A stretch of 64,000 bases of DNA from Alphaproteobacteria bacterium (GTDB taxonomy: Bacteria; Pseudomonadota; Alphaproteobacteria; UBA828), in the NCBI GenBank assembly GCA_963422645.2, contig CAXXVO010000021.1, positions 32,001 through 96,000 of the forward strand, in the 5' to 3' direction. Shown here in pieces: positions 30,017-60,755 of this stretch; position 1 is the first letter of the stretch, and each line of letters opens with the position of its first letter. Position numbers and translations under genes: made by a program. A model generated the notes under the pieces. It was not told the DNA's origin. It was given only the letters and a program-made list of their open reading frames with translations, and made no database searches.

Positions 30017-30277
30017 TAGCCCGCACTTCTCACCAGGGTCATGGTCTGCGCGGCGCTGTCCGGCCGACAGGGTAGGAGCGGCGCGCAGCGCGATGCGGGG
30101 ACATCGGGCAAGCGCCGTGACGCACGCTGTCGGCCGGACAGCGCCGCCCTTCGGGTCGCGCCCAGGCGCCCGACCACGGCGTCGCGGGCCTCAACCGTAT
30201 TCCCCGATACGCTTTTCGTCCCGCTCCTTGTGGATCGAACGCCTGGGTGCGACGCAGGCCGTGACCGTGGTGAGAAA
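30017..30277. repeat. Palindromic MITE-like element (family B), left part; its right TIR is split by the island and completed at 60747-60755
   Basis: Left TIR TAGCCCGCACTTCTCACCAGGGTCATGGTCTGCG matches the reconstituted right TIR at 30/34; internal 20-bp and 14-bp inverted repeats. Confidence 0.8.
30267..30277 (+). repeat. attL-like 11-bp direct repeat GTGGTGAGAAA
   Basis: Second copy at 60736-60746. Confidence 0.8.
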
Positions 30278-30467
30278 CAACAGTTACGTCTTGTTCCTGC
30301 TGATGCTCGTACTTGCTTAGGAGTACTCGGATACCGCTGTAACATTGGGTTTTGGCCGATATCCGACGATCCTGAAAGGCCAGGAGAGGTCAGGAACACC
30401 CCTGAAGTTACTCTCATGTGTTGTGGTTGGTGTTGATTGCGATCCCAAGCCATGCCATCATGCCCGC

Positions 30468-31736
30468 ATGCCAAATTCCGGGAAGCGCGTCGCGCGCGTC
30501 AAGCTCACCATCGCCAAGCGCGCCATCGACAGCCTCGAGCCCGCCAACAAGCCATGGATCGCCTGGGATGACAAGCTGACAGGCTATGGCGTCCTCGTGC
30601 ACCCCTCGGGCGTCAAGTCCTACATCGTCAACTACCGCCTGGGCGCGGGCGGCAGGACGGCGCCCAACAAGCGCCTCGTCATCGGACGCTGTGACAGGAT
30701 GGCGGCCGAGCAGGCGCGGCGCGAGGCCCACAGGCTGCTCGGCATGGTCGCCATGGGCGAGGACCCGGCGGCCGAGCGCGCGAGGAGCCGGCGCATGCCC
30801 CCGCTCAGGCAGGCCTTCGAGCAGTACATGAGGGCCAATCCCAAGCGCAAGGCGAGCACCAACGAGTCCTACCGCGACCGCTTCGAGCGGCCGCTCGCCG
30901 ACTGGCTTGCCCGTCCCCTCGACGCCATTACCCGGAGCGACGTGGAGGACCGTTTCAACCGCATCACCGAGAAGCATGGCTGGGCGACGGCCAACCAGTG
31001 CATCTCGCTCTTGCGCTCGGTCTATCGCCGGCCCTGCGTGGACATCGAGGGACTGGCCAATCCGGTCGACCTCTGGCTCGCAGGCGGCGGGAGGTTCCAT
31101 CCCAAGCCGCGCCGCAAGATCCCGCCACCGGCGGAGGTCCTTCCGTGCTGGCGGAAGGGGATCGAGGCCGTAGTGAGCAACCCCGCCCTTCGCGACGTGT
31201 TCTGGTTCGGCATGTACACCGGCATGCGGCTCGGCGAGGTGCTGCCGCTCCGATGGGAGCGTGTGGACAGGGAGGCGCTCGTCTTCCGCGTGGATGAGAC
31301 CAAGACGGGCGCGCCGCTGGAGCTGCCCATCACCCGGCAGCTGGCAGCCATTCTCGATCGCCGGTGGGCCGAGAGCGGCCACCTGCCGGGCGGTTGGGTG
31401 TTTTCCTCTGCCTCCAGCCGCACGGGCTATTTCGTGAAGTTGACCTATTTCCATCGCCGCATCAGCGAGGCAGGTGGCGCAAAATTCTGGTTCCACGGGC
31501 TGCGCAACTGCTTCATCACGGTGGCCGAGCGCGAGTTGATGCTCCCGCACGCCCTGACCAAGCGGCTGGTCAACCACGCGCCGCCCAACGACGTTACCGA
31601 GGGGTACGCCGCCGACTGGACGATCGGGCAGCTGCGCGGGCCGGCTCAGCGCATAGCGGATTGCATCGAGGCCTTAATGATAAGTGCAGACTCCGAGCGT
31701 ATCTGCGGCGAATGGGCGGCGGTCGGGTCCTCATAA
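30468..31736 (+). CDS. Tyrosine recombinase/integrase with N-terminal arm-binding domain
   Basis: WDDKLTGYGV...YR arm domain; catalytic R (TGMRLGE), K (ETKTG), HGLR, LVNH, Y (TEGY). Confidence 0.92.
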   Translation: MPNSGKRVARVKLTIAKRAIDSLEPANKPWIAWDDKLTGYGVLVHPSGVKSYIVNYRLGAGGRTAPNKRLVIGRCDRMAAEQARREAHRLLGMVAMGEDPAAERARSRRMPPLRQAFEQYMRANPKRKASTNESYRDRFERPLADWLARPLDAITRSDVEDRFNRITEKHGWATANQCISLLRSVYRRPCVDIEGLANPVDLWLAGGGRFHPKPRRKIPPPAEVLPCWRKGIEAVVSNPALRDVFWFGMYTGMRLGEVLPLRWERVDREALVFRVDETKTGAPLELPITRQLAAILDRRWAESGHLPGGWVFSSASSRTGYFVKLTYFHRRISEAGGAKFWFHGLRNCFITVAERELMLPHALTKRLVNHAPPNDVTEGYAADWTIGQLRGPAQRIADCIEALMISADSERICGEWAAVGSS

Positions 31737-31754
31737 CCTGAAGGTCGTAGGTTC
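31730..31754 (+). other. Initiator tRNA-Met fragment (att-like relic)
   Basis: CTCATAACCTGAAGGTCGTAGGTTC corresponds to anticodon loop through T-stem of tRNA-fMet; cut at 31755 by an IS21 TIR. Confidence 0.7.
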
Positions 31755-32153
31755 TGTCGGTGACGGTCTAAGAGTGCACTTATTTGCTGCATTCGGCAGG
31801 TGAGCGCAGCGAGCCCATAGCCGTCGGGTTGGTGGCTGGAGGCGTTTCTCGTCGGAGCGGTGGGTAAGTAGTCCGCCGCAGCGGCCGCCAAGAGTCTGGC
31901 GGCGGCGGGCTACTTATCCACCGCGGGCGGGCGTCTCGATTCCTGTTTTGGCGAGCTGGCTGGCGGCGGTTCCGCGGACCTGACAAGGGGAGCCGCGGGA
32001 ATACACTCGGGCCGCTGAGAACGATGCGGCGCCGGCCTCATTTGCTTGGTGGCAACGACCGGCGCCGCACCCCCCGAGCCATGCAAGGCACGGCCCATAT
32101 GCGCAGTATCGTGCGGGTTTGGGCGTGGGTCCACCCCGTTCTCATCGGTCGCG

Positions 32154-32588: not shown

Positions 32589-32589
32589 G

Positions 32590-34871: not shown

Positions 34872-34873
34872 CC

Positions 34874-35764
34874 GTGGATCGCCTCGATCCATGGAACCGG
34901 CGGGTGCGGGCCGAGGCCCTGCGAGGCTATCCCCTCGAAGACGTCGTCCACCGCCTCGGCTACCGCCGCGATCCCGCCGATGCCGCACGTTGGAGACGTC
35001 CCGGATCGGTCGTCAGCATCAACGGCTTCATGTTCTACGATCATCTCCGCGGAGAGGGCGGGGGCGGAGCCATCGACCTGGTCATCCATGCGCGGCGGTG
35101 CCCGCCGCCCGAGGCCCTGGCCTTCCTCTCGAAACTGCCGTGCCGTGACCGGATCCCGGCCGATCGTCGCCCGAGGCCGCCGTGCTCGGAGCGCCACTGG
35201 CCCGCCGTCCAGCGCTGCCTCGTCGAGCAGCGCGGCCTCGGAGGCACGCTCGCCCTGTGCCGCGACCTCGGCCTGGTACACGCCGACCGGCAAGGCAACG
35301 CCGTGTTCGTCCGCCGAAACGCGGCCGGCGAGGCGACCGGCGCCGAGATCGTCCCCGCCGCGGGAGCGCACCGCCCCGCGCTATCTCCGGCCGCGCGCGG
35401 CGGCTTCTGGATGTCGTGGGACCCCGACTGGCCGATCTCCGTCATCCTCGCCAAGAGCGCCATCGACGCCCTGTCGGTCCTCTCCCTCCACCTCGTCCCG
35501 GCCGGGCGCAAGGGATGCGCCGTGGTCTCAACCGGCGGCGCCAACGCAAGCCTCCCCGAATGGATCGAGGCATGGAACCCCGGCCGGATCTTCTGCGCCT
35601 ACGACGCCACCCGCCAGGGCGATGACGCCGCCGCCCGGCTGATCCGAAAGAACAACAGGATCGTCCGCATGCGCCCGGCCCTCGATGGCCTGGACTGGAA
35701 CGACTTGCTCATGCGCGAGCGCGCCGGCGAACCGATCCAGGCCGATGACCGGCCCCTCGACTGA
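34874..35764 (+). CDS. Primase-like DUF3991/Toprim-domain protein
   Basis: GGGGAIDLVIH, AKSAIDALS, CAYDATRQGD, DWND; inside the IS21 TIRs. Confidence 0.65.
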   Translation: MDRLDPWNRRVRAEALRGYPLEDVVHRLGYRRDPADAARWRRPGSVVSINGFMFYDHLRGEGGGGAIDLVIHARRCPPPEALAFLSKLPCRDRIPADRRPRPPCSERHWPAVQRCLVEQRGLGGTLALCRDLGLVHADRQGNAVFVRRNAAGEATGAEIVPAAGAHRPALSPAARGGFWMSWDPDWPISVILAKSAIDALSVLSLHLVPAGRKGCAVVSTGGANASLPEWIEAWNPGRIFCAYDATRQGDDAAARLIRKNNRIVRMRPALDGLDWNDLLMRERAGEPIQADDRPLD

Positions 35765-35895
35765 ACCGCGCCATATCCCCGAACACCAACACGCGTATCC
35801 AGCGGCGCCACCGTGCGGCACGCCACACGCCCCAGGCCGACTACGCCAACCGGGGAATGCAGCAAATATGCGCACTTCTAAGCCGTCGCTAACAC

Positions 35896-37312: not shown

Positions 37313-37346
37313 CGAGTTGGGAGGGAGGAACGAAGGGAAGTGGTCC

Positions 37347-39994: not shown

Positions 39995-40389
39995 GGTGCC
40001 GTGCTCCTTCGAGAGGTGAACAAGGACGGCGGAGGCGGCTCCCTCTAGAGCGCCGACCGCCGCCCCGCTCACGGCCGAACCTTTCCTCTCGATGGTGCGG
40101 GGCAATTCAGGGGCGCGAGTAAACGGCGGCGGTGCCGACGGCGATACGGATACGGACAAGCGAAACATGATCCCACCGGCGCGGCGGGCGTGCCGGGGTC
40201 GTTCGTCGGCTTTCGGGAGACGGTCCGGCCTGCGTCGCGTTCCGTGCGTACTGCTTGTGCGGAAGGGTTATTGGGGCGGGCGGGCGGCCGCCGTACCGGC
40301 GTTGCGGGCCGATGTGATCGCCCGCAGCGTCTTGATAGCATCGCAATCGGTGTGTAAATTGGGCTTCCAGCCGAACGGAGGGCATGGCC

Positions 40390-40632
40390 ATGGCGAGCAT
40401 CACGATCCGCAACCTCGACGACGACGTGAAGACGCGCTTGCGCGTGCGCGCCGCCGAACACCACCGCTCCATGGAGGAGGAGGCGCGGCTGATCCTGCGC
40501 GAGGCGGTGGGGGGCAAGGCGGACTCGCGGAACCTCGCGAGCATCGTGCGTTCGCATTTCGGGCCGGACAACGGGGTGGACCTGGAGTTGCCGCCTCGCG
40601 AGGCCGGGCGCCAGCCGCCGTCTTTCGACTGA
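40390..40632 (+). CDS. FitA/VapB-like ribbon-helix-helix antitoxin
   Basis: MASITIRNLDDDVKTRLRVRAAEHHRSMEEEARLIL. Confidence 0.9.
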   Translation: MASITIRNLDDDVKTRLRVRAAEHHRSMEEEARLILREAVGGKADSRNLASIVRSHFGPDNGVDLELPPREAGRQPPSFD

Positions 40633-40642
40633 GCCCTCGGCC

Positions 40643-41068
40643 ATGGCCGTGCTGTTAGACACAAATGTGGTGTCCGAACTGATCCGCAAGGCGCCCGATC
40701 CGGCCATCGAGACGTGGGCCGCTGGCCACGCCCTGGAAGACCTGTTCTTCTCGGCGGTGGGCGAAGCGGAGCTGCGCTACGGCGCCGCCATTCTGCCGGC
40801 AGGCCGGCGGCGGGAATCGCTGGTCCGGGATATCGAGGCAATGCTGAGCGACGCCTTCGATGGCCGCGTGCTGCCGTTCGACAGCAGGGCGGCCCGCGCC
40901 TATGCGGATATCGCGGCCATGCGCCGTTCAGCCGGCCGCACGGTCCCGCCGGCGGACTGCCAGATCGCAGCGATCGCCCGATCCCGCAATATGGCGGTGG
41001 CGACCCGCAACGTTCGCGACTTCGATGACATCGACATCGAGGTCGTCGATCCGTGGACGGCGGCGTGA
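40643..41068 (+). CDS. vapC: PIN-domain toxin (FitB/VapC)
   Basis: LLDTNVVSE, ELRYG, DCQIAAIA, TRNVRDF. Confidence 0.92.
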   Translation: MAVLLDTNVVSELIRKAPDPAIETWAAGHALEDLFFSAVGEAELRYGAAILPAGRRRESLVRDIEAMLSDAFDGRVLPFDSRAARAYADIAAMRRSAGRTVPPADCQIAAIARSRNMAVATRNVRDFDDIDIEVVDPWTAA

Positions 41069-43206: not shown

Positions 43207-43212
43207 CCCGCC

Positions 43213-46031: not shown

Positions 46032-46627
46032 CCGACATCGTGGACAGGCAACGCAGAAGTGAAATGATGGCAGGAATTCGTGGACGCGACACGGCCCCCG
46101 AACTGGCGGTTCGGCGCATCGCTCACCGCATGGGCCTGCGCTTCCGCCTGCATCGCAAGGACCTCCCCGGACGCCCGGACTTGGTGCTTCCGAAACACCG
46201 TCTTGCCGTCTTCGTACATGGCTGCTTCTGGCATCGGCACGAAGGCTGCCGGTACGCCTCCACTCCCAAGTCACGGGTTGCGTTCTGGACGGCGAAGTTC
46301 GAGGCCAACGTTGTCCGGGATGCACGTCAGCAAGCGGCCTTGATGGCGCTTGGTTGGCAAGTCCTCGTCATCTGGCAGTGTGAAACAAGCGATAAAGCGG
46401 TAGTCGCGCGCAGGCTGGCTGCATCCATCGATCGCGGACGAGCGGCTACGAAGCAAGAGATCACACCCTCGGTCGCGATGATGGAAGCTCAACGCTCGAC
46501 GCCGGGATTCGAAGTGACCACAAGTCTCTCCCGGACTCTGAACGGGGCAGACCGGGATTCGGGCGCTGCCGGCGCTTCGGCGCCAGGCGGCGGTGAGCAG
46601 ATACGCCCTGCCGTGGTGACCCGGTGA
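46028..46627 (+). CDS. vsr: Very short patch repair endonuclease
   Basis: MTDIVDRQRRSEMM...DTAPE, LPGRPD, FVHGCFWHRH. Confidence 0.92.
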   Translation: MTDIVDRQRRSEMMAGIRGRDTAPELAVRRIAHRMGLRFRLHRKDLPGRPDLVLPKHRLAVFVHGCFWHRHEGCRYASTPKSRVAFWTAKFEANVVRDARQQAALMALGWQVLVIWQCETSDKAVVARRLAASIDRGRAATKQEITPSVAMMEAQRSTPGFEVTTSLSRTLNGADRDSGAAGASAPGGGEQIRPAVVTR

Positions 46628-47685: not shown

Positions 47686-50618
47686 TGGCAAGGTTCAGGA
47701 CCCGCGCCCGTACGCTGGACATGCTGGGGAGACAGCAGATTGCCGGCATCCCCACGGCGATCAGCGAGCTGTTCAAGAACGCGCACGACGCCTATGCCGA
47801 CCGCGTCGAGATCGACTACTACCGATCAGACGGCCTGTTCGTCCTGCGCGACAACGGTATCGGCATGAGTCGGGACGACTTTGTGACGCGCTGGTTGACG
47901 ATCGGCACGGAAAGCAAGTTCGATCCCGATCACCCACCGCCGCACGACCCGGACAAAGAGCCGCGCCCGATGCTCGGCGAGAAGGGCATCGGGCGGCTTG
48001 CTATCGCGACCATCGGTCCGCAACTCCTGGTCCTCACCCGCGCCAAAACCGACGATGGGGCGTCTGATCTCACCGCAGCGTTCCTGAACTGGGGCATATT
48101 CGAATGGCCAGGCATCGATCTGGAGGACATCGACATTCCTCTGCGCTCATTCGAACCGGGCACGCTGCCGTCGGCACAGGATGTGGCCGAGATGGTGAGC
48201 GAGTTTCGCGCAGGAGGCGAAAGGCTTGGTCCCGCGGTAGAGCGATCGATGCTGGAGAGGCTGTCGCACGAACTCGATCAATTCGACGTGGACCCGCAGG
48301 CCATCGACTCCTACCTCAGGGAGCCTTCATTACGTGGAAACAGTTACGGAGTCCATTTCATCATCAAGCCAGCCTCGGAGCTGGTGGCGGAGGATATCGA
48401 CGGCGACCCGACTGCGAGCAAGATAGTCGTGATGAAAAAGGCGACGCCTTTAAAGAAGGCATTGCTGGGGTTCGGCAACACGATGACGCCGGGTTCACAG
48501 ACCGTGATTCGCACGGCGTTTCGCGATCATAAGTCCGATGAAGTAGCTGAGGACGTGATTGGCGACGACGAGTTCTTTACGCAGAAGGAGTTTCAGAATT
48601 CGGATCACCGCGTTCACGGTAGATTCGACGAGTTCGGTCAGTTCCGCGGCCGAATTTCGATCTATGGTGAAACGATAGACGATCACGTCATTCCTTGGGT
48701 TGGGGGACGTGGTTCACCGACGCTCTGCGGACCGTTTTCGATCGACTTCGCTGCCTTCGAGGGTGATAGTAGACACTCGACGATCCCGCACGAGGAACAT
48801 GCGAGACTGGCCGCCAAGACTGAAAAGCTGGGCGGACTCTACATTTATCGCAACGGAATCCGAATTCTGCCGTATGGCAACACGGAGTTCGATTGGCTGG
48901 ATATCGAATCCAGGCGCACAAAGAGCGCTTACTATTATTACTTCTCTCATCGGAAGATGTTCGGGGCAGTCGAGATCGACGCCGACAAGAATTGTAATCT
49001 GCTGGAGAAGGCGGGCCGGGAAGGATTTCAGGAGAACAAGGCGTATCGTCAATTCCGGTCGATCCTTCAGAACTTTTTCCTTCAGGTGGCAGCGGACTTT
49101 TTTCGGACCGACGGAGTGCATTCCGAACCGTTCGATCTGCGAAAGACCGAACTATCTAAGGAAGATGAAGCAAGGAAACGGAGAGAGAAACAGGTTTCGG
49201 TGAGAAAGAGGAGATTCGAGACCGACCTGAATGTGTTCTTCGACGAACTTGCGAGCAATGCGCCTCAAGAGGAGGCGTCGGCATTGACGGCACATATTGA
49301 GGCGGAACTGCGGGCCGCATGCGCTATCGCGGACAGTCAACTGGCGGCACGCAGAGTTCTTGACCTCGAACGTCAAGCGCAAACGGACATCAGGGAACTG
49401 GAAGGTCGCTACCGGATCGTGCGGCCGCGTATCGGCTTGAGCAAGGCCACGCTCCGTGACTGGAGCGTCTACAATGCGGAGTTCGCTTCGCTTCGGGAGA
49501 AGGTGTTCCGGCCGGCGCGCGAGCTTATCGAAGAATTGATTGGCGAAGAAACGAGAAAGGCGAAATTGTCTCTGGGTCTTCGTGTGCGGACGGAGGCTAC
49601 TCTGGAGAGCCTCGGCCAGGAAGCCCGCAAGGCCATGGGAGAATCAAGCCGAGCGGTGAGGGAAGAGGCGGACAAGGTCGCATCGGAAGCGCGGAATGCT
49701 GCGGGCCGGTCGTTGAAGACCGTCGAGTCGGAGTTGCGGGCGGTGCTGAGCGAGTTTCAGCGGATCGATCTCGAGGCAGTGCCTGATGAGCCATTCATCG
49801 AAACCAGGGACGCGCTGGAAACCAGGATCCTGAGGGTCGCCGAGAAACAGGGCGCGTTGCTGCGTTCGGTATTGGAGCAACTCCAGGCGATAGACGTTAC
49901 GGGTGAGAGTTCGACAGCCGAACAATTGATGGCAATCGAGCAACGCAACCTCCGGCTGCAAGAGGACGCCGAGGCCGATGCGCAGTTGGCGCAGTTGGGA
50001 ATGGCGATCGAGATCATCAATCACGAGTTTTCGGGAACCGTACGCGCCATTCGGGGCGCCTTGCGGAGGCTGAAGGCATGGGCCGATGTAAACGAAGGCT
50101 TGGGTGAACTCTACAACAGTATTAGAACAAGCTTCGATCATCTGGACGGCTACCTGACTCTGTTTACACCGCTTCAACGTCGCCTTTATAGAAAGGAAGT
50201 GGAAATACACGGGTCCGAGATTCGGGACTTCCTCGACGAACTGTTCCGTGCGCGTATGGCGCGGCATGACGTGACGTTGACTGCAACAAAGGCGTTCGCC
50301 AGTGCCGTGCTCGTCGGCTTTCCGTCGAGCTTCTATCCGGTTTTCGTGAACCTCATCGACAATGCCATTTTCTGGCTGTCTCAGCAGAATCCACAGCGCG
50401 AGCGGCGCATCACATTGGACGAGCGCAGCGGCACGTTGCTGGTCGGGGACACCGGGCCGGGAGTCGGTGTTCGCGACCGAGAGGCGATCTTCGAGTTCGG
50501 CTTCAGCCGAAAGCCGGGCGGACGAGGCATGGGGCTGCACATCGGACGTGAAACATTGCGCCGCGTCGGGTTCGACCTGCGGCTGATCGAAGGCGATGAA
50601 GGCGCAACATTCGGTTGA
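47685..50618 (+). CDS. MORC/GHKL ATPase fused to a C-terminal histidine-kinase module; last residues clipped by IS3
   Basis: ELFKNAHDA, DNGIGM, GEKGIGR; coiled coil; IINHEF, NLIDNA, DTGPG, GRGMGL; stop supplied by the IS3 TIR. Confidence 0.82.
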   Translation: MARFRTRARTLDMLGRQQIAGIPTAISELFKNAHDAYADRVEIDYYRSDGLFVLRDNGIGMSRDDFVTRWLTIGTESKFDPDHPPPHDPDKEPRPMLGEKGIGRLAIATIGPQLLVLTRAKTDDGASDLTAAFLNWGIFEWPGIDLEDIDIPLRSFEPGTLPSAQDVAEMVSEFRAGGERLGPAVERSMLERLSHELDQFDVDPQAIDSYLREPSLRGNSYGVHFIIKPASELVAEDIDGDPTASKIVVMKKATPLKKALLGFGNTMTPGSQTVIRTAFRDHKSDEVAEDVIGDDEFFTQKEFQNSDHRVHGRFDEFGQFRGRISIYGETIDDHVIPWVGGRGSPTLCGPFSIDFAAFEGDSRHSTIPHEEHARLAAKTEKLGGLYIYRNGIRILPYGNTEFDWLDIESRRTKSAYYYYFSHRKMFGAVEIDADKNCNLLEKAGREGFQENKAYRQFRSILQNFFLQVAADFFRTDGVHSEPFDLRKTELSKEDEARKRREKQVSVRKRRFETDLNVFFDELASNAPQEEASALTAHIEAELRAACAIADSQLAARRVLDLERQAQTDIRELEGRYRIVRPRIGLSKATLRDWSVYNAEFASLREKVFRPARELIEELIGEETRKAKLSLGLRVRTEATLESLGQEARKAMGESSRAVREEADKVASEARNAAGRSLKTVESELRAVLSEFQRIDLEAVPDEPFIETRDALETRILRVAEKQGALLRSVLEQLQAIDVTGESSTAEQLMAIEQRNLRLQEDAEADAQLAQLGMAIEIINHEFSGTVRAIRGALRRLKAWADVNEGLGELYNSIRTSFDHLDGYLTLFTPLQRRLYRKEVEIHGSEIRDFLDELFRARMARHDVTLTATKAFASAVLVGFPSSFYPVFVNLIDNAIFWLSQQNPQRERRITLDERSGTLLVGDTGPGVGVRDREAIFEFGFSRKPGGRGMGLHIGRETLRRVGFDLRLIEGDEGATFG

Positions 50619-50672
50619 TCCTCCCCCATTGGATTGGTCCATCCTTAGGTTTGGGAATGAGGAGGATCAGAG

Positions 50673-50951
50673 ATGGCAAGGAAGCGTTACAAGCCGGAGG
50701 AGATCGTCAGTCTGCTGCGGCAAGCTGAGGTTTTGCACGGCCAGGGCAAGTCGATGGCGGACGCGATCCGGCAGCTGGGGATCAGCGAGGTCACGTACTA
50801 CCGCTGGCGCAAGGAGTATGCCGGGATGAGCGGCGATCAGCTTCGGCGCCTGAAGGAGCTTGAGAAGGAGAACGAGCGGCTGCGCCGCGCGGTCTCGGAC
50901 CTGACGCTGGACAAGCAGATTCTCAAGGAGGCAGCCCAGGGAAACTTGTGA
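50673..50951 (+). CDS. IS3 transposase OrfA
   Basis: RYKPEEIV, TYYRWRKEY, LKELEKENERLRR. Confidence 0.9.
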   Translation: MARKRYKPEEIVSLLRQAEVLHGQGKSMADAIRQLGISEVTYYRWRKEYAGMSGDQLRRLKELEKENERLRRAVSDLTLDKQILKEAAQGNL

Positions 50952-51844
50952 GCCCCTCGCGCCGCCGCCAGTGCATCGACCATGTCCGCGACCGGCTCGG
51001 GATCTCGGAGCGCCGCGCCTGCCGGGTGCTGGGGCAGCACCGCTCGGCCCAGCGCCATGTCCCGCGCGGGCGTGACGATGAGGATCGCCTGGTCGCGGAC
51101 ATGATCGAGCTGGCCCGCCGGTACGGTCGCTACGGCTATCGCCGGATCGCCGCCCTGCTGCGCGACGCCGGCTGGCAGGTCAACGACAAGCGGGTCGAGC
51201 GCCTGTGGCGGCGCGAGGGGCTGAAGGTGCCCGCCAAACAACCCAAGCGAGGGCGTCTATGGCTCAACGACGGCTCCTGCGTCCGGCTACGCGCCGAGCG
51301 GGCGGACCATGTCTGGTCCTATGACTTCGTGCATCACCAGACCCATGATGGCCGGGTCTTTCGTACGCTCAACGTCCTGGACGAGTTCACCCGTGAGAGC
51401 CTGGCGATCCGTGTCCGGCGCAAGCTCTCCTCGACCGATGTCATCGACGCGCTGACCGACCTGTTCATCCTGCGCGGTATTCCGGCCTGGATCCGCTCCG
51501 ATAACGGCCCGGAGTTTGTCGCTGAGGCCGTCCGGGGATGGATTGCCGCGGTCGGGGCCCGGACCGCCTTCATCGAGCCTGGTTCTCCTTGGGAGAACGG
51601 CTATATCGAGAGCTTCAACGCGCGGCTGCGCGACGAGCTCCTGAACGGGGAGATCTTCTATACCCTCAAGGAAGCCCAGGTTCTCATCGAATCCTGGCGG
51701 CGCCATTACAACGCCATACGCCCACACAGCAGCCTGGGATACCGGCCGCCGGCCCCGGAAACGATCGTCACGCCAAGCTGGCCGCCCGGCTCCGCTACGC
51801 TCCGCCGGCCATCCAGCTTGGCCGAGAAACCGTCAATGCACTAA
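50948..51844 (+). CDS. IS3 transposase OrfB (DDE)
   Basis: WSYDF, RSDNGPEF, WENGYIESFN. Confidence 0.92.
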   Translation: MSPSRRRQCIDHVRDRLGISERRACRVLGQHRSAQRHVPRGRDDEDRLVADMIELARRYGRYGYRRIAALLRDAGWQVNDKRVERLWRREGLKVPAKQPKRGRLWLNDGSCVRLRAERADHVWSYDFVHHQTHDGRVFRTLNVLDEFTRESLAIRVRRKLSSTDVIDALTDLFILRGIPAWIRSDNGPEFVAEAVRGWIAAVGARTAFIEPGSPWENGYIESFNARLRDELLNGEIFYTLKEAQVLIESWRRHYNAIRPHSSLGYRPPAPETIVTPSWPPGSATLRRPSSLAEKPSMH

Positions 51845-52850: not shown

Positions 52851-53122
52851 TGGCGCGGCGCACGAAATACGCCGCCAAGCGCGCCGTGACACGCTTCCTG
52901 GCGGCGATCGGCGTCTGGGCTGTCAATCGGCTTTCAATACTGACCCCCGATCGGCGTGCAAAATTGACCCCCCTGAGTGGCACGGCGGAGGTTGTCCCGG
53001 TAGCCAATAGGGGGGACCCGCGCGGCTTCGTGTGGCGCCCTGCGCTACGCGGAGCGAAGCCGCGTGGGGGGTCCCTGTTGGCCCACCGGGGCAACCGGGC
53101 CGCAAGGGAGGCCGGCGGCGGG

Positions 53123-53851
53123 TCAGGAGCGGTTCTTGAAGCGCCAGCTCTCGTTGCCGGTCTCGATGATCTCGCAATGATGGGTGAGGCGATCGAGCAG
53201 CGCTGTGGTCATCTTGGGGTCGCCGAAGACGGATGGCCATTCGCCGAAGGCGAGGTTTGTGGTGATGACGATCGAGGTGCGCTCGTAGAGCCGGCTCATC
53301 AGATGGAAGAGCAGCTGCCCACCGGCCTGGGCGAAGGGCAGGTAGCCGAGCTCGTCGAGGATGACGAAGTCGCGGCGGACGAGCTGGTCTGCAGTGCGGC
53401 CCTGGCGTCCGGCGCGAAGCTCGGCCTCGAGGAGGTTGACCAGGTCGACGACGTTGTAGCACCGGCCGCGCGCGCCCTTGCGGATGCAGGACCGCGCGAT
53501 GGCGACGGCGAGATGGGTCTTGCCGGTACCGGTGCCGCCGACCAGCACGATGTTGCGTTTGCCCTCGAGGAAGCCGCCGCCGGCGAGCTCCTGGATCAGG
53601 GGCTCGTTGACCGGCGAGGCGGCGAAGTCGAAGTCGGCCAGCTCCTTGACCGTCGGCAGCTTGGCGGAGGCCATCTGGTACTTGATCGAGCGGGCCCTCT
53701 TGTCGGCGATCTCGACCTGCAGCAGCGTACCGATGATCTGTTGCACCGGATGGCGGCGCTTGAGCCCGTCGGCAAGGATGTCGTCGTAAGCGGCGCGCAT
53801 ACCTGCGAGCTTCAGCTGGGTCATCATCTCCAGCACATCATGACGCTCCAT
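53123..53851 (-). CDS. istB: IS21 helper ATPase IstB
   Basis: [32 protein letters not shown]. Confidence 0.94.
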
Positions 53852-55352
53852 GACCGGCCTCCCTCAGGCTGTCGTAGCGCTGACAGTCGGCTACCGGCTT
53901 GTGGCGAAGCTGCAGGCCCTCGGGCGTCGGGATGATTGCCGGCGGTGCCGGCTGGCGCTGCCGGGCGAGGATGTTGAGCACCACGTCGGCGCTGCAGGCA
54001 CCGCAGTCGAGCGTCTCGGCACAGGCCGCCTCAACCGCCTCCAGTCCGTCCTCCAGCACCGCCGCGAGCACCTTGACGAACTGCCGGTCGCCGTCGTCGT
54101 GGCCCGCGAGCCGGGTTCGCAGGCGGCCGAGCGCGTTGGGCAACTGCCAGTCCTTGAAGGGCGCGCCATTGCGTAGCGCGCCGGGCTTCCGCGTCAGGAT
54201 CGGCACGTAATGCCACGGATCGTAGACGAACCGGCCGCGCCCGAAGCTGCGGGGGTGCTCGGCAACGGTCTCGCCGTCCTGGCGGATGACGATCCGATCG
54301 GCATAGGCCCGCACGTCCACCGGCCGGCCGACGGCGCGGGCCGCGACGCTGTACTGGTTGTTGTCGAAGCGCACCAGACAGGTCTTCGAGACCGACACCT
54401 CGCTGGCATGGAAGCCGTCGAAGGGGCCGCGATACGCCATCAGGAAGGGCTGCTCCTCCTCGAACACCTGCCACACCGTCTTGCCCGGGATTGTCGGATG
54501 CGGATGCTTCTTGGCGTCCTCGATGCACCGATCCATCAGCCACTCGTTGATCTCGGCGTAGGAGCGGCCCCGCGGGATGGGCACGAACAGGCGGCCGCGA
54601 AGGTCACCCACCTGCTTCTCGACCTGCCCCTTCTCCCAGCCAGCCCCTGGCGTGCACGCCACAGGCTCCACCAGATGGTGCGAGCACAGCTCCTGGAAGC
54701 GGCGGTTGTAGTCCCGCTTCTTGCCCACGAAGATCGTGCTCACCGCCGTCTTCATGTTGTCGTAGATGCCCCGCCGGCAGACCCCGCCGAAGAAGCGGAA
54801 GGCACGCTCGTGCGCCTCGAAGACCATCTCCTGGCTCTCGCGGGGAAAGATCTGGACCAGATACATCCGGCTGTGGCACAGCCGCATGTGCGCCGCCTTC
54901 ACCCTGGTCGTCGCGCCCGACAGACGCGCGTACTCGTGGCTCCAGTCGAACTGGTAGGCCTCGCCGGGATCGAAGATCAGCGGCACATAGGCCTGCGCCG
55001 GCGACAACAGCCGCCACCGGCGCCGCCAGGCCCTGGCATAGCGGCGAACCGCGTCATAGCCGCCCTTGTAGCCCAGCGACACAAGGTCTTCATGAATCCG
55101 CAGAAGAGACAGCCGATCCTTGCGTGCCTTCTTCTCGTTGGCCTTCAGCTGGCGCTCAAGCTCCTCCACCCACAGCCCAAGCTTCGGCATCGGCTGGATC
55201 TTGCGCTCGTAGCTGTGCGAGGTCGCATCGCCCCGCACCACCTTGCGTATCGTGTTCTTGGAAACCCTCAAATCCCGGGCGAGCTTCTTGATCGGAACGC
55301 CCTTCACCAGATGATCCCGACGGATCTTCGCGATCGTTTCCACAACCAGCAT
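53838..55352 (-). CDS. istA: IS21 transposase IstA
   Basis: [29 protein letters not shown]. Confidence 0.94.
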
Positions 55353-55462
55353 CTCCCCCACCACCCCGTCCGTCCAAACGACGAGGTGTGTTCATGGACA
55401 CAAATCCAAGGGGGTCAATTTTGGACGCCGATCACCCCCAATAGGGGGTCACTTTTCCACGC

Positions 55463-56023
55463 TTAACAACAGTCAGGCGCTCTGCAGCGCGGCGTGCGCG
55501 AGAGGGGTGCCGCCGGCGAGGCAGCCGACGCGGATGCGGCCGGGTCGTCCTCGCGAAGCTGCTGCCGCAGTTCCATCCAGAGCCGTCCGAGGACGTTGTT
55601 GCCCTCGTAGCGATCGGCGACGGGGCTCGCGCGCCACCAGGGGTCCCGGGTCGAGACCTCGACGATGGAACGCTCGCCGGTTGAGGCGAGCACGGCGTCG
55701 ATCTCGGCCGCGTTCGCCTCGCGCTTCAGGCGCAGGACCCAGCGCATGACGTCGACGCGCTGCGCGTTCCAGCCGGGATCGATGCCGAGTCCCGAGGTGC
55801 GGCCGATGGTGGCTGCTTCCCTGGCCGTGGGCGCCTCGGCGATGCGTTGCTGGACGTCGGGGTGCGCCGGGAACTTGCAGGCCTGATAGACCGCCTCGGA
55901 CGTCCCGAACGACCAGGGACCGGCCATGATCGGGACGGCGAGCGGCTGGAAGTTGCTGAAGGCGCCCCACGCCGCTTTCGTGAAGCGAAACCCGCAGGCC
56001 TGCTCCTTAATATAGGTGCGCAT
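55463..56023 (-). CDS. NADAR (YbiA-like) family protein
   Basis: FSNF, SEAVYQACKF, DPWW, GNNVLGRLWMELR; C-terminus runs into the IS21 end. Confidence 0.8.
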   Translation of the reverse strand: MRTYIKEQACGFRFTKAAWGAFSNFQPLAVPIMAGPWSFGTSEAVYQACKFPAHPDVQQRIAEAPTAREAATIGRTSGLGIDPGWNAQRVDVMRWVLRLKREANAAEIDAVLASTGERSIVEVSTRDPWWRASPVADRYEGNNVLGRLWMELRQQLREDDPAASASAASPAAPLSRTPRCRAPDCC

Positions 56024-56328
56024 CGGTTTCTCCCTCGCGGACGGCTGGCGGCGCGGCGGGGGACTCGCTCCCCTGTCGCGGGCTTGCCCCTCCCGGTCCC
56101 GCCTCTTCCTCGGGGCGCCGGGAATGCTCGCAGGCGGCGTTCGAAGCCCAGGTGCTGCGGTTCCGGGAGGGACCGCGGGACTTGCCGGGAAACGGCGGGT
56201 TATGCTCGCAAGGGCGAAGCCGCGGTCATGCAGGTCCTAGCGGAAGCGCCGTGGGGTCGGGGCCAGTGTCGACCTCGCGGGAGGGTAGCGGGTTCACGGC
56301 GCTGATCTCGGGATCGGAGGAATCGGCA

Positions 56329-57513
56329 ATGAACAAGGCGGCGATCGTCGCCCGCGTGGCCAGGCGGATGGGGCTGAACAAGTTCGCGGCGGAAGGAGCG
56401 GTCGATACCGTTCTTGAGGCGATCGCCGAGGGCCTTGCCAAGGAAGAGGACGTGCGGATCGCGGGGTTCGGCACGTTCAGGACGCGGAACCGGGCTGCAA
56501 GGCAGGGCCGCAACCCGGCGACGGGCGAGAGTGTGCGGATACCGGCGTCGAAGGTACCGTCGTTCAAGGCGGCAAAAGGTCTCAGGGAGGCGGTGAAACG
56601 GGGCTGGCAACCGGATGCGGCGGTGCCCGGGGATGACGGCGATGGCGAGCCCGGCAACTCAGGCGCGATGCTGGAGATGTCGGACTGGCCGGGCGGCGTG
56701 GAGCCGGTCTGGACCCTGTTGGAGCCGGAGAGCGCCCGGGCGCTGCGGACGGAACCGGCGGCGGATAACCCGACACTGCGGCTGGCGGCGGACCTGCCGG
56801 ACGAGGCGTTCGCAGAATCGGCCTTCGTGCGCAATGCCCTGATCGCGCTCGAACTGATAAGCAACGAGTTCTTGCCGAGGTTCACCGAGAAGGGGCATTT
56901 CGGGCGCGAGATGGTCGCGTCGATGCGCGAGGCGATGACCTGGCCGGGAATGGAGGCGACCGAGCAGTTCCGGACGGGAAAGGCGCTGCGTGAGGGAGAC
57001 GTCTGGGAGCTTCACCTGCTGCATCGGCTGATGGACCTGGCCGGGCTCATGGACGGGCAGGCGTTCCTGGGCCAGTTGACCGCGTTGGGGCGCGAGATGC
57101 GCGAACCCGGACGACGGGGCGCCCTCCAGGCGCTGCTGTTCAGACACCTCTTCTGGCGCGCGGACCTCTCGGAGTTCGTGGAGACGTTTCCGCGAGGGCT
57201 GCCGGGCCGGTGGCCGCAGGACGATACCGGCGTGATCCTCTGGGGGCTCTCGAACGTGGCCGGAGAGTGGCAGAGCGCGGACACGCTCAGGACGCTGACC
57301 ACGGTTCGCGACGATTCTGTGGCGGGACTGCACTGGAACGCGGAGGGCACGATGTTCGCGGGCCGCGTTCTGCAACCTTTGCGCTGGTTCGGGCTGCTCG
57401 AATACCACGGGCCTCCGGAGAGGTTCGAGGTGGGCTGGCGCAAGACCCCCCTCTTCGACCGCTTCCTGTCGTTCGATGTGAGGCTCGCGAAGGACCGGGG
57501 GACGGGTCACTGA
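56329..57513 (+). CDS. HU/IHF-family DNA-binding domain fused to a ~300-aa unknown domain
   Basis: MNKAAIV...GFGTF...GRNPATGE...PSFKAAKGLREAV followed by a long in-frame extension; RBS GGAGG. Confidence 0.8.
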   Translation: MNKAAIVARVARRMGLNKFAAEGAVDTVLEAIAEGLAKEEDVRIAGFGTFRTRNRAARQGRNPATGESVRIPASKVPSFKAAKGLREAVKRGWQPDAAVPGDDGDGEPGNSGAMLEMSDWPGGVEPVWTLLEPESARALRTEPAADNPTLRLAADLPDEAFAESAFVRNALIALELISNEFLPRFTEKGHFGREMVASMREAMTWPGMEATEQFRTGKALREGDVWELHLLHRLMDLAGLMDGQAFLGQLTALGREMREPGRRGALQALLFRHLFWRADLSEFVETFPRGLPGRWPQDDTGVILWGLSNVAGEWQSADTLRTLTTVRDDSVAGLHWNAEGTMFAGRVLQPLRWFGLLEYHGPPERFEVGWRKTPLFDRFLSFDVRLAKDRGTGH

Positions 57514-57761
57514 GCGCGCATTGCCGGGAGGACGGCCGCACCGCGCGGGGGTGATCGAGGTGTCGGGCCTGGGTGCAGGTTGCTGCGATGGCTGCGGCAG
57601 CGGCACAGGGTTCGCACGGGCCGATGATGGATCGCCCCGTATGAGGCGCGTGGCCGCCGCCGTCTCTCCGCGCACCGAAGACGAGGGATGGGCGGTTCTT
57701 ACGGGGCTGCCGATCTCTCCCGTACGGAATCGGTCCGCGCCGACCGGCCGGCGTGGAAGCG

Positions 57762-59855
57762 CTAGGCCTCGTTGGGAAGGTTGAGGGAGGAGACGCGCAT
57801 CCGCTTCCTCCGTTCGAAGAAGATCGGGAGATCGGCGCGAGCCGCGGGGCCGGACGGCTCGCCGCCGGCGAGAGCGGTGAGCAGGGACAGCGCGGGGTAG
57901 TCCTCGATTTCGAGCTCGTCTCTCGGCCAGTCGTCGTCGAGGATGCGCACCCCCTGAGCGAATCCTCGCGCCCAGGTCGTCAGCTCGCCGTCGCCGAGAG
58001 CGGCGAGCGCGTCCGCGGCGAAGCCGCTCTCTCCGATACCGCGGTCGAACTCGTTGTGGCGCTCCGGTGCGCGGCGCAGGAACTCCCCGGTCCCCTCGCC
58101 GCCGATGCCCCGGACCCCGTCCGCGAGCGCGTGCAGCCATTCCGCGGGACGGGGCTCCCGGGGCGCGAGCACCGCGGCCGCGACGTAGCCGTCGAGCCAG
58201 GCCAGCGAAGCAGCGCAATGCAGGTCCCCCTCCGGCCACGCCGCCGCCTCGGCAAGGGCGGCCAACGGGTCCGGACGCCCTGCGTCGCCGGCGCGAAGCC
58301 GGCGTTCCTCCTCGTGCCAGACGTCGACGGTGGCGAGGAAGATGCTATCCATGATCGGGATGCCCTTGAGCGCGCGTCCGTCGAGCAGGGCCGAGGCCAC
58401 GGCGGCGAAGGAGCGCCAGTCGGCGTCGCCGGCGGCCTTCAGGACATGGGCGGCGCGCAGCACGAGAAGGGCCCAGTCGCCGCGCCTCTCTTCGAGGCGC
58501 GCCCGGAAAGCTTCGAGCGTCTGCCGTGGACCGTCAGCGGCCTTCAGCGATTCGTCCAGCAGCGCCGTGCCCTCGAACCATGTGTCCATGATCGGCCGGT
58601 CGTCGGGCCACGCAGAGCTGCGGCGGATCAGCTCGTCCCGCTCCGCGTCGGGCAGGCCGGCGATCGCGCCTCCCGGGTCGAGTTCCGTGAGCCAGTCGGG
58701 CGCCGTCATCGCCCGCGGGCGCAGCTCGGAAAGGCCAAAGCCGGCGGCGACGTCGATCAGATAGGCCGGTGGAGGCCGCCCTTCGGCAAGTCCGTCCGCG
58801 AGCGCGGCGGAAAGCGCGGTCTCGAAGGCTTCGAACGGTACGTCGAGCGCCCCCAGCTCGTCCTCCAGGTTGCACGCGGCACTCAGGGCTTCGTCGTCCC
58901 GGAAGATGCGCGCGATGGTGACGCCGTGGCCGGCCTTGACCACCACCACCGCGCAAGCGGGTCCGTCCGCAGGGTCGAGCATGGCGGCGAGATGCTGCAT
59001 GCTCGAGCCGGCCGGCAGGGCGGCGAGGAAACGCGTCGGACGGCCCGCGGGGCGCGCCATCGGGTGGAAGCGGCCCCGCAGCCGGGTCTCGCGCAGGGCG
59101 GTATCCAGCAAGGGACGCGCGGAATCCGCCGGCATCCAGTTCCGGATGAGCGGCACGAGCGCCGGCAGGGCGGGCTCCATGGCGTCGCCCCGCACCCGGC
59201 CGGAGAGGCCGCTGGCGGCCGCCAGGCGAACCTCGGGCGAGCGGTCCAGCAGCCAGTAGAGGGCGGCGCGGCCGTACCGCTCCTCTTCGCGCCCCGAAAC
59301 ATGGTGGACGAAGGTCGGCCTGAACTCGGACGGAAGGACCGCCATCAGGTTGGCGAGGAGGTCGTGCAGCAGATGATCGTCGCCGCCCGCATGGCGCGCG
59401 AGACGGTCGATCTCCCCGTCCAGCAGGCCGGGAAACGCGGCAAGCGCCTGGCCGGTGCCGGGTTCGCCGGCGAAGATCGGGAAGAGGCATTCCGGCGCAT
59501 CCAGGCCTGCGCGGATGAAGGCGCGTGCCAGACCGAGCGCGGCGTGGTCCGGGAGGTCGCCGCGGGCGGCCAGGGTATCGATGGCGCCGCGCGCCTCGGC
59601 GAGGAAGGGCTCGCCGAAGCGGCGTCGGTTCTCGGCATCGCGTTGCGCCCGTTCGACCAGGACCCCGAACAGGTCGAGCGGAGCGTTGCGCTCCGAGTCC
59701 GCGGTCCGCGCGATGCGGGCGGCGAGCATGGAAGCCATGCCCGTCCTGCCGAGAAGCACCGGCGCGTGCTGCTCCGCCAGCTCCCTTCGGTCGAGGAAGT
59801 CGTCGAAGCCGTCGAGCTCGTCGAGGCAGGCTTGCAGAAGATCGGCTTCGGGCAT
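57762..59855 (-). CDS. Large helical hypothetical protein with C-terminal UPF0149/YecA-like domain
   Basis: WLDGYVAAAVLAP...PAEWL...WARGFAQG; start uncertain. Confidence 0.6.
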   Translation of the reverse strand: MPEADLLQACLDELDGFDDFLDRRELAEQHAPVLLGRTGMASMLAARIARTADSERNAPLDLFGVLVERAQRDAENRRRFGEPFLAEARGAIDTLAARGDLPDHAALGLARAFIRAGLDAPECLFPIFAGEPGTGQALAAFPGLLDGEIDRLARHAGGDDHLLHDLLANLMAVLPSEFRPTFVHHVSGREEERYGRAALYWLLDRSPEVRLAAASGLSGRVRGDAMEPALPALVPLIRNWMPADSARPLLDTALRETRLRGRFHPMARPAGRPTRFLAALPAGSSMQHLAAMLDPADGPACAVVVVKAGHGVTIARIFRDDEALSAACNLEDELGALDVPFEAFETALSAALADGLAEGRPPPAYLIDVAAGFGLSELRPRAMTAPDWLTELDPGGAIAGLPDAERDELIRRSSAWPDDRPIMDTWFEGTALLDESLKAADGPRQTLEAFRARLEERRGDWALLVLRAAHVLKAAGDADWRSFAAVASALLDGRALKGIPIMDSIFLATVDVWHEEERRLRAGDAGRPDPLAALAEAAAWPEGDLHCAASLAWLDGYVAAAVLAPREPRPAEWLHALADGVRGIGGEGTGEFLRRAPERHNEFDRGIGESGFAADALAALGDGELTTWARGFAQGVRILDDDWPRDELEIEDYPALSLLTALAGGEPSGPAARADLPIFFERRKRMRVSSLNLPNEA

Positions 59856-59989
59856 GGTCGTGTCCGGGATAGAGGGCTGATGCCGGGGATCGAGACGCAT
59901 CGTGCCATGGCGAGCCCGGTCGTTGAAGACGGCAGGGAGAGACGAAGAGGCGGCGGGGCGCCCGCAGCGGACACCCCGCCGACGGTGGA

Positions 59990-60310
59990 TCAGCGGCGCC
60001 GGGCGTCGACGAAAATGCCCGCCGCGTAGCTCCCCCACATTTGCATGCCCGAGTCCGTCAGGTTGACCCCGGTGCAGACGATGACCTCGTGGCGCTCGGG
60101 CCGCAGCCGCTGAACGGCCCGCAAGCTCATCGCCTTGCGCGCCTGCTTGCGTCCGCCCTTCGATCCCTTGCCGGGCCGCCAGGGCCGGATCTGGCCCTAG
60201 TAGTCGGACAGGTACCGCTCGACCACGTAGCGCTGGTCATCGAGCCCTTGCCCGAACAGGTGGGTGAGGTAGGTTCGGGCGTTTCCATGGAGTGTGCCGT
60301 TGATCTGCAT
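59990..60310 (-). pseudogene. Paralog of 39668-39994 with one in-frame TAG (60199-60197); not in ORF track
   Basis: MQINGTLHGNARTYLTHLFGQGLDDQRYVVERYLSDY*GQI...SLRAVQRLRPERHEVIVCTGV...GMQMWG...GIFVD. Confidence 0.75.
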
Positions 60311-60735
60311 GTGCCGCCTCCCGCTAGCCTGTGAGTGGAAGCGGCGAGGACGCCTCTCGCCGGACGCCGCACGCCGCGCCCCGCTTCAGGCCGGGCTCTC
60401 CCTCCTGCCGGCGTGAGGGCGCCGGCGCGGAGCAAGGATCGTGATGCGGGTTGAAGGCGGGGGGCCGCACGCCGCCGGGCCGGGCGGCCCTGCGGCGCCG
60501 CCGAGGCCCGGATGGGCGACGGCATGGCTGGGCCGTGCGCGGCTGCGGAGGACGGGGCGGCGATCCCGCTGCCGGGGTTTCCGCGGGCTTTTGAGGTCAG
60601 GAGTGGTCTGGAGTTTACTTCGGGGTGGTTACTGGGTGATTATTTTCCTCGTTCCGGCGTCGGGCGCACGCTCGTGTCTTCTCCCAAGCTATTGAAATGA
60701 AATGGTTATGCGCGACGGCGCGCCCAACCGTGTTG

Positions 60736-60755
60736 GTGGTGAGAAATGCGGGCTA
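60736..60755 (+). repeat. attR-like direct repeat GTGGTGAGAAA plus the remaining MITE terminus TGCGGGCTA
   Basis: DR of 30267-30277; 60737-60755 is an inverted copy (18/19) of 30017-30035. Confidence 0.8.

Follow-up and report, generated by a model that had tools for sequence, protein, structure and literature searches.

Which sequence does an integrase island use as its attachment site when no tRNA lies at either of its ends? This question is raised by a 30.5-kb island at positions 30278-60746 of a 64-kb stretch of an uncultured alphaproteobacterial genome (hereafter the window, to which all plain coordinates refer). The island carries a gene for a tyrosine integrase beside its left end, and both of its ends abut pieces of the terminal inverted repeat (TIR) of a MITE (miniature inverted-repeat transposable element). 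Our reading, to which we assign a probability of about 0.88, is that the window holds one copy of a multicopy family of integrative islands whose integrase would recombine a site of the island with the TIR of this MITE. The usual picture of such islands is one of a single or few attachment sites in conserved genes, whereas here the attachment site would be a mobile multicopy repeat. Genomes, contigs and integrase loci are numbered with the letters G, C and L, respectively; contigs given without a genome number belong to the genome of the window (G000).

Anatomy of the island junctions

The window holds two copies of the 11-mer GTGGTGAGAAA and no more, one spanning 30267-30277 and the other 60736-60746, a duplication without counterpart in 100 dinucleotide-preserving shuffles (0/100). 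Direct repeats at both ends and an integrase beside one end are the features by which site-specific islands are recognised. No tRNA was detected at either junction in the window, where islands of the P4 type usually adjoin the 3' part of a tRNA or tmRNA; the target here would be the TIR of the MITE. The left repeat (plus strand), the putative attL core, closes a MITE copy at 30017-30277 that corresponds to positions 1-261 of an element of approximately 270 bp and takes in the left TIR at 30017-30050, then the body and, from the right TIR, its inner 25 nt at 30253-30277. An inverted-repeat scan also recovered 30017-30050 and 30253-30277 as the two arms of an inverted repeat. The right repeat (plus strand), the putative attR core, is followed by the outer 9 nt of a TIR (TGCGGGCTA, 60747-60755). 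Compared by script, 30017-30050 matched the reverse complement of 30253-30277 plus 60747-60755 at 30/34 positions, and a 270-bp element joined in silico, in which 60747-60755 supplies the last 9 nt to 30017-30277, aligned end to end with seven intact copies from this genome, the identities being 83-96%. Both the position of the repeated 11-mer and the 30/34 inverted copy had been described in the initial annotation of this locus and were reproduced here.

On the island side, the bases before the right repeat are GTGTTG and those after the left repeat CAACAG. When the island ends were joined by script, inverted arms of 7 nt matched at 6/7 positions around the spacer GGTGAGA. The left chromosomal flank is rsmE (29161-29958, minus strand; Pfam Methyltrans_RNA, E=6e-38, and PUA_4), which encodes a 16S rRNA methyltransferase and lies in an orthologous flank in relatives. 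The right chromosomal flank is pepF (60753-62576, minus strand; Pfam Peptidase_M3 and Peptidase_M3_N), which encodes oligoendopeptidase F.

The MITE is multicopy and mobile

The MITE is short (approximately 270 bp) and non-coding, with 34-nt TIRs (...GTGACCNTGGTGAGAAA followed by TGCGGGC-TA, or GCCCGCATTTCTCACC...). Searching the genome with a 34-nt TIR probe at up to 10 mismatches returned 76 TIR-like sites, compared with 1, 1 and 2 for three shuffled 34-mers, and split copies of the MITE were found besides the seven intact ones. Matches, with many copies each, were present in 18/18 genomes of the same genus that were searched. At the rsmE site, four relatives (G005, G009, G001 and G008) lack the MITE and read gggggcc-TG-gagggcc, versus TA-element-TA in this genome; at a second site, just one TA is present in G005 and G009, compared with a TA outside each TIR end here. 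The MITE is mobile: places at which this genome carries the element between duplicated TAs are empty in relatives, with one TA only. Duplication of TA at C-TA-G-like sites is a behaviour of IS630/Tc1-type elements. When this genome was searched for an autonomous partner with these TIRs, 0/10 loci of the IS630-type transposase family DDE_3, to which the search was directed, carried the TIR at up to 12 mismatches, and two pairs of TIRs, 1.4 and 2.4 kb apart, enclose genes for a 3-hydroxyacyl-CoA dehydrogenase, a glutamine synthetase and an isochorismatase and no transposase. An Rfam scan of 29900-30400 (E up to 1) returned no family, so that the MITE corresponds to no described RNA.

A separate observation concerns the TIR end at pepF, which supplies the stop codon of this gene (TAG, minus strand, 60753-60755). 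In G008 the gene ends in TAA and no TIR lies there, so the element appears to have inserted into the TA of the stop codon, leaving the protein unchanged.

Island ends abut TIRs at several places in the genome

In this genome we found five left ends and six right ends of the island, the terminal 60 nt being 100% identical within each set and the flanks differing; all five left and all six right ends abut a TIR at the same nucleotide. The six right ends all show GTGGTGAGAAA and then the outer 9-mer of a TIR, which is TGCGGGCTA (two ends), TGCAGGCTA, TCCGGGCTA (two ends) or TGCGGGTTA, before running into unrelated flanks. The five left ends (in the window 30278-30467, plus strand, the putative P' arm) are preceded by the inner arm of the TIR and a variable 11-mer (GTGGTGAGAAA, CTGGTGAGAAA, GTGAAGAGAAA or GTGGTTAGAAA), which stands directly before CAACAG. 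The 11-mer thus belongs to the island at the right ends and to the target at the left ends, which would place the exchange at or to the right of the AGAAA block; the polymorphism of the outer 9-mers, and synteny (see below), show a target origin for 60747-60755 as well. Beside the left end on C5, the MITE part is approximately 90% identical to that of the window, compared with 98-99% for the adjoining integrase DNA, indicating that the MITE is the target and not cargo.

Three further near-identical copies of the integrase were identified by tblastn on C9, C17 and C5, the C5 copy aligning in two pieces and being possibly disrupted. By megablast, a conserved module at the right end (56468-60746) is common to other island copies: C3 is 100% identical over 56468-60755, and C5, C9, C8 and C13 hold partial matches. 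Near-identical ends and integrases at different sites argue for a recent spread of the family, although the copy in the window may be inert.

Unoccupied target sites in related genomes

In G011, the flanks of a left end (C9:649386) and of a right end (C8:429644) are contiguous across an intact solo TIR, ...GCGACCGTGGTGAGTAATCCGGACTA. An unoccupied target with both flanks contiguous was thus found for the C9/C8 copy, but not for the rsmE/pepF pair of the window. At the orthologue of the C17 left end, G005 and G009 carry an intact degenerate TIR (left flank only), and at the orthologue of the C7 left end, G005, G008 and G009 carry a solo TIR-like sequence. Old solo TIRs at conserved positions therefore appear to serve as targets too.

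Two further loci are recorded for completeness. In G005 (locus L169, on contig C3 of that genome), the site orthologous to C9:649386 / C8:429644 has approximately 215 bp of unrelated DNA within the solo TIR, between ...GTGGCTAAA and AAATCCGGGCTA, which may be the remnant of another insertion at the same site. A candidate empty site shared by G002 and G000 was discarded and not used as evidence: the right flank from G002 maps beside a TIR (C15:285167-285200), but in the opposite orientation.

Close homologs of the integrase share the TIR junction

We compared the sequences adjoining 110 integrase loci, of which 30 came from genomes of the genus and 80 from public contigs, the latter being metagenome-assembled genomes (MAGs) labelled Alphaproteobacteria, Rhodospirillales and similar. 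An integrase at least 82% identical to that of the window was present in 21/110 rows. Nineteen of these 21 carry a TIR arm and a (G)AGAAA junction, located 46-67 bp upstream of the projected start of the open reading frame (ORF) in 18/19 rows and 245 bp upstream in L126; in the two rows lacking the junction the integrase is truncated, at residues 176 and 133. After merging loci found twice, 15 distinct loci of other genomes remained in which a complete integrase reaches at least 82% identity, and every one of them showed the TIR junction at the same nucleotide (15/15). The target is the right TIR of the MITE at eight of them, the left TIR in mirrored arrangement at two (L035 and L036), a short TIR-TIR hairpin at two, a TIR only at two and a degenerate TIR at one. 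The first bases of the island vary by lineage (CAACAG, CTAGAG, CTACAG, CCATAG, CAATAG, CCACAA). The initial annotation had proposed that the integrase island uses a multicopy, itself mobile, intergenic repeat as attB, and had named a search for further copies of the repeat and the mapping of boundaries next to close integrase homologs as checks. Both turned out in its favour, the former with 76 TIR-like sites and matches throughout the genus genomes searched, the latter with 19/21 close homologs adjoining the TIR at one and the same nucleotide, and the empty sites and the orthologous TIRs point the same way.

More distant integrases gave a different picture. Among the 89 rows below 71% identity, there was one weak match to the TIR (3 mismatches, 154 bp away), and the relatives at 60-70% identity are not convincingly TIR-linked. 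Many of the latter lie next to a tRNA-Met(CAT) or tRNA-Leu(TAA) gene that is cut within its anticodon loop and present as the 3' half, and others abut GC hairpins; the tRNA halves were recognised by motif and their anticodons (Met CAT, Leu TAA) read by eye from the strings. In none of 60 loci did ARAGORN place a whole tRNA next to the integrase; it made a single call, a tRNA-Gly at L117:3232-3319, which lies past the 3' end of the integrase match. A quick maximum-likelihood tree was built from 54 near-full-length, stop-free proteins, excluding those with stops, a start beyond residue 60 or an end before residue 430 as well as duplicates. The eight non-redundant, stop-free, TIR-linked integrases formed one group with a Shimodaira-Hasegawa-like approximate likelihood ratio test (SH-aLRT) value of 99. 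This group is sister to a pair adjoining a tRNA-Leu(TAA) half (98) and lies near the group linked to the tRNA-Met(CAT) half.

Several observations on these relatives deserve mention in their own right. The GC hairpin GGGCGGGTTTSAAACCCGCCC, with compensatory variants, stands beside integrases of 60-64% identity (L086, L090, L093, L098-L101, L111, L128 and L140). The corresponding clade comprises nine rows (SH-aLRT 99); its MAGs bear the labels Binatia, Thermodesulfobacteriota and Rhodospirillaceae, and the hairpin may be either the target or a part of the island. Another upstream string, ...GCGCGTAGACTWACGAG, follows GC-rich hairpins in L047-L049, L080, L082-L085, L089 and L134. Four rows labelled by this pattern (L050, L084, L089 and L134) are nested in the tRNA-Met-linked clade, and the upstream string of L050 looks different. 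By eye, the TIR core and the tRNA anticodon-arm targets share GACC approximately 13-17 nt from the junction, with TGAG/GAGA near; we regard this resemblance as a lead only.

The integrase and candidate arm-type sites

The longest ORF of the integrase (30345-31736, plus strand) has a TTG start and encodes 463 amino acids. The likely start is the in-frame ATG at 30468 (30468-31736), some 190 bp in from the left junction, as the alignments of most homologs set in near residue 41-46. Pfam assigned an N-terminal arm-binding domain (Arm-DNA-bind_3, 46.9 bits; cut-off 27) and a catalytic domain (Phage_integrase, PF00589, 38.3 bits; cut-off 27.1; E=1.5e-9). Tyrosine recombinases have the catalytic set R, K, HxxR, H/W and Y. 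In the integrase, R295, K320, H384, R387, H411 and Y421 (numbering of the 463-residue ORF) are at least 98% conserved in 54 homologs and would constitute a catalytic-type set of R, K, HxxR, H and Y, the roles being assigned by motif order only. Tandem pairs of GGNCNGGA with 10-bp spacing were found in both arms, at 30378 and 30388 on the left and at 60595 and 60605 on the right, against a background of 0.128 per 100 bp. Situated approximately 100-150 bp from the core in both arms, the pair is a candidate arm-type site. A megablast search of PLSDB with 30017-31736 gave no match. Approximately 6 kb past the end of the window, part of an integrase with 70% identity (C22:102096-103001) adjoins a truncated IS21 copy.

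Gene order around rsmE and pepF in relatives

The initial annotation had reconstructed one intact element of approximately 270 bp between rsmE and pepF. The joined element does align with seven intact family members, as described above, but gene order contradicts the corresponding allele. In G005, G009, G001 and G008, rsmE runs straight into the sequence that flanks the right end C5:38313 in this genome, and reverse mapping of the C5 flank confirmed this continuity in G005, G009 and G008. In the same four relatives pepF is on a different contig from rsmE, so a search for an empty rsmE-MITE-pepF allele found the two genes not to be neighbours. Another gene directly follows the TAA that ends pepF in G008, leaving no TIR there, and in G001 the same neighbour lies further downstream; in the genome of the window this neighbour is found from C8:249118 onward, in a region that contains neither a TIR nor an island end. 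With the partner of the rsmE flank on C5 and pepF on another contig, the pieces flanking the window island belong to two distinct TIR copies, 30017-30277 to one and 60747-60755 to the other. This shuffling of flanks is most simply read as the outcome of recombination among copies of the island, which might be homologous or might be carried out by the integrase on non-cognate ends; a misassembly at repeats that these copies share would be a less likely cause.

Cargo and right-end module

Between the integrase and the conserved right-end module lies variable cargo (31737-56467) that is unique to the window copy except for insertion sequence (IS) elements and that holds IS21-like and recombinase fragments, an SSB, a TraN fragment and a NADAR protein. 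A FitA-like ribbon-helix-helix antitoxin (40339-40632) and an overlapping ORF that follows it (40493/40643-41068) likely form a toxin-antitoxin pair (40339-41068) just upstream of hsdR. Then come a type I restriction-modification system (41053-46031), a C5 cytosine methylase (46624-47685), a 1051-residue HATPase/BbrUII-like protein (47463-50618), an IS3 element (50948-51844) and an IS21 element (52920-55471; IstA-like 53838-55364 and IstB 53123-53851, both on the minus strand). The 1051-residue protein combines an N-terminal HATPase/BbrUII-HgiDII-like region with a C-terminal histidine-kinase-type ATPase domain (HEF_HK). The GC content drops to 0.56-0.64 over 45000-50999, and the low-GC segment with hsdS, the C5 cytosine methylase and the 1051-residue protein (44841-50618) is probably a separately acquired defence module. 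The IS21 element of 2.55 kb is present in approximately 90 copies at more than 99.8% identity across 23 contigs, a copy number that points to a massive recent IS expansion. A scan of a subset of the island ORFs revealed the TraN fragment as the sole conjugation gene, the relaxase, coupling protein and type IV secretion system set of an ICE (integrative conjugative element) being otherwise unseen in that subset. ARAGORN placed an odd 'tRNA-???' with a two-base anticodon inside the island (35558-35648, minus strand), which is probably a false call or a tRNA remnant.

In the conserved right-end module, an HU/IHF-like protein (56152-57513), whose residues 60-149 form a DNA-bending domain, might act as an architectural factor of recombination supplied by the island. 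It is accompanied by a 758-residue UPF0149-domain protein (57762-60038, minus strand), and the non-coding P arm bears the right-hand GGNCNGGA pair.

Discussion

Targeting of the TIR by this island family is, judged by comparison between sequences, well supported. The sequences show how the junctions are built, how many copies exist, that the target side is polymorphic, that target and integrase clade go together, that empty sites exist and that synteny is broken. These findings suggest a model in which catalysis by this integrase, the exact points of exchange and the routes of multiplication and rearrangement are predicted as follows. The island site, ...GTGTTG, GTGGTGAGAAA, CAACAG..., would recombine with the TIR of the genus-wide MITE of approximately 270 bp, the exchange taking place at or beside the AGAAA block, at a distance of 9 nt from the element's outer end (the flanking TA counted). 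Any copy of the TIR would serve as a target, whether it belongs to the left or the right end of a complete MITE, is part of a short TIR-TIR hairpin or stands as an old solo TIR, with a few mismatches tolerated. As the landing sites would be intergenic, insertion would leave genes intact, and as an occupied cell would keep dozens of free TIR sites, copies could accumulate. Recombination between copies, whether homologous or integrase-mediated between non-cognate ends, would then swap chromosomal flanks. The 30.5-kb copy in the window would be the product of such a swap, its left side being the MITE by rsmE and its right side the terminus, at the stop codon of pepF, of a second TIR element.

How the two ends of the window copy came to face each other can be explained otherwise. 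A single 30.5-kb island that entered one MITE between rsmE and pepF, and whose excision would restore rsmE-MITE-pepF, is suggested by the two pieces, which join in silico into a full-length family member, and by the correct orientation of both ends on one contig. Any right end, however, would rebuild a MITE, contributing only 9 nt, and with the rsmE flank continuing across an empty site into the C5:38313 flank in four relatives, pepF on another contig in all four and no TIR at pepF in G008, we consider such a history very unlikely. An assembly chimera, in which two islands were joined via shared repeats such as IS21 or the end modules, has somewhat more in its favour but is unlikely: the 2.55-kb IS21 exists in approximately 90 near-identical copies and the end modules are repeated 5-6 times, the complementary pairing on C5 (the flank that neighbours rsmE with right end 38313, and left end 116735) is what a swap at a shared repeat should produce, and the stated contamination of the genome is 8.48%. 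Yet the resolution of approximately 90 IS21 copies in 23 contigs suggests that long reads were used, and several other flank pairs are split between contigs, more than one misjoin would explain. A chimera would, moreover, touch the pairing of the ends only and not the targeting of TIRs.

Other explanations concern the role of the TIR itself. The TIR pieces might belong to the mobile unit, the cargo being moved by a MITE transposase with the integrase as a passenger; the island is indeed bounded by inverted TIR sequences ending in TA, and MITE-flanked cargo and MITE-mediated mobilisation are known (described in parts of PMC10969869). The junctions speak otherwise, the island side being identical where the outside differs (98-99% for island DNA against approximately 90% for the MITE), some copies having no MITE body and the outer 9-mers being polymorphic. 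Solo TIRs at orthologous positions in other species as targets, the mirrored insertion into the left TIR in L035 and L036 and the 0/10 DDE_3 loci carrying the TIR likewise make mobilisation by a MITE transposase highly improbable. We attach still less weight to a secondary association, in which the MITE or TIR transposes beside island ends or chance homology drives homologous recombination. MITEs are recombination hotspots according to parts of PMC10969869, and island and target share only 10-11 bp. This length, by general knowledge, falls far below what efficient homologous recombination needs, the junction lies at the same nucleotide in 15 distinct loci elsewhere and 11 ends here, dozens of intact TIRs stand without islands, and the orthologous TIRs pre-date the insertions.

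A number of results weigh against an island family that actively recombines with TIRs. The connection between integrase and junction is an association, from which catalysis by this integrase is inferred. IS elements and gene fragments occur throughout the island, so the window copy may no longer move. Left and right ends are mostly unpairable on one contig and their counts are unequal (5 vs 6), so every island here may be recombinant. Both flanks of one ancestral TA (G005:C3:101768|101771) carry right ends in this genome (G000 C9:182281 and C3:72326), which implies two insertions, one in each TIR of a single element, or a rearrangement afterwards; at another site, one side carries the MITE and a left end, and the other side a left end. 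The E flank on C5 carries an intact TIR and MITE where the simple model predicts a right end. The core geometry given in the initial annotation, 7-nt arms around a 7-nt spacer, holds for the window copy, but the inverted arms do not match in a candidate end pair of G002 (left approximately 701.8 kb, right 721,442), the sole such pair assembled elsewhere; right ends with CTAG before the repeat were not pairable with left ends, and we make no claim of covariation between the core arms. The integrase found no match in NCBIfam or in PDB sequence searches, and the assignment as 'P4-type', a probable one, is drawn from the Pfam domain architecture. Neither an excisionase (Xis) nor an AlpA-like gene was present among 10 small ORFs near the ends, whose matches were confined to NADAR and FitA-like proteins. 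No circular or attP junction was detected in the assembly with a 28-nt probe built by script and a relaxed pattern (0 matches), nor was there a tandem array. Likewise, no circle junction was seen among the listed loose ends of Logan contigs from four runs (X15, X1, X19 and X2) over 29300-31800, a result that covers those listed ends, with 110 further ones outside the listing, and contigs instead of raw reads, and that is uninformative on excision. These contigs are short and break inside the repeat; among the loose ends listed, those at 30276/30277 run on into intact TIR ends. As a side observation, the run labelled sponge metagenome (X2) holds related contigs.

Recombination of the island with MITE TIRs, if correct, would combine features of several known systems. 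Like tRNA islands of the P4 type, the family has Arm-DNA-bind_3 and Phage_integrase domains, an integrase at one end, a short shared direct repeat and candidate sites in both arms. Unlike them, it targets a MITE TIR instead of a gene, and this TIR exists in dozens of copies that face either way; several islands share a genome, and nothing needs regenerating at the target. IS1397 and ISKpn1 target BIME/REP (bacterial interspersed mosaic elements/repetitive extragenic palindromes). Elements of the IS110/IS1111 family insert into REP-like sequences. Like all these, the island would land safely in an intergenic repeat of many copies, which may even be a MITE. A part of PMC10969869 describes the insertion of IS1111 into QMITE2 of Coxiella. 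All of these are IS elements of 1-2 kb with DDE/DEDD transposases, unlike the present tyrosine-recombinase island of tens of kb with attL and attR. Integration of the Neisseria Nf/MDA filamentous prophages into dRS3, a 20-bp repeat, is attributed to a Piv/IS110-like transposase, in contrast to the tyrosine integrase and MITE TIR described here. These prophages resemble the island family in their multicopy repeat target, their several copies and their link to rearrangements.

In Vibrio cholerae, the phage-inducible chromosomal island-like element (PLE), a satellite, enters the superintegron's VCR repeats by means of a serine recombinase. The integron recombinase IntI works on attC in its folded, single-stranded form. 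With PLE/VCR and with integron cassettes/attC, the island would share site-specific recombination into a repeated, structured sequence with many equivalent sites. The left attachment site and int of PLE are mentioned in a part of PMC7567579. Unlike PLE and integrons, the island has a lambda/P4-like integrase and targets scattered genome-wide. The Rickettsiales amplified genetic element (RAGE), an ICE of Orientia and Rickettsia, is similar in being an integrase element in many decayed copies in the genome of a host-associated bacterium. RAGE is described as tRNA-associated, and we know of no MITE target reported for it. A search of full-text literature outside paywalls and supplementary files found no tyrosine-integrase island that targets a MITE TIR.

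Targeting of TIRs would explain both the presence of at least 5-6 island copies per genome and flanks that depart from ancestral gene order. It also offers a rule for finding island boundaries in the genus, namely the inner arm of the TIR plus AGAAA, and dozens of graded target variants would constitute a natural system for the study of integrase specificity. We lean, with some reserve, towards the idea that a clade of P4-like integrases switched its attachment site from the tRNA anticodon arm to the TIR of a genus-wide MITE, by which the islands would escape the one-site limit, pile up, immobilise the MITEs they hit and, as their ends recombine with one another, drive exchange between replicons. 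With the TIR-targeting clade standing next to tRNA-targeting relatives in the tree, this would be a tractable case of target switching, and as other clades adjoin GC-rich hairpins, a switch from tRNA to palindromic repeat may have occurred in more than one clade of the integrase family. If the target switch is true, every MITE end and every relic TIR would be a landing pad, and islands with restriction-modification and defence-type cargo would accumulate in these uncultured alphaproteobacteria.

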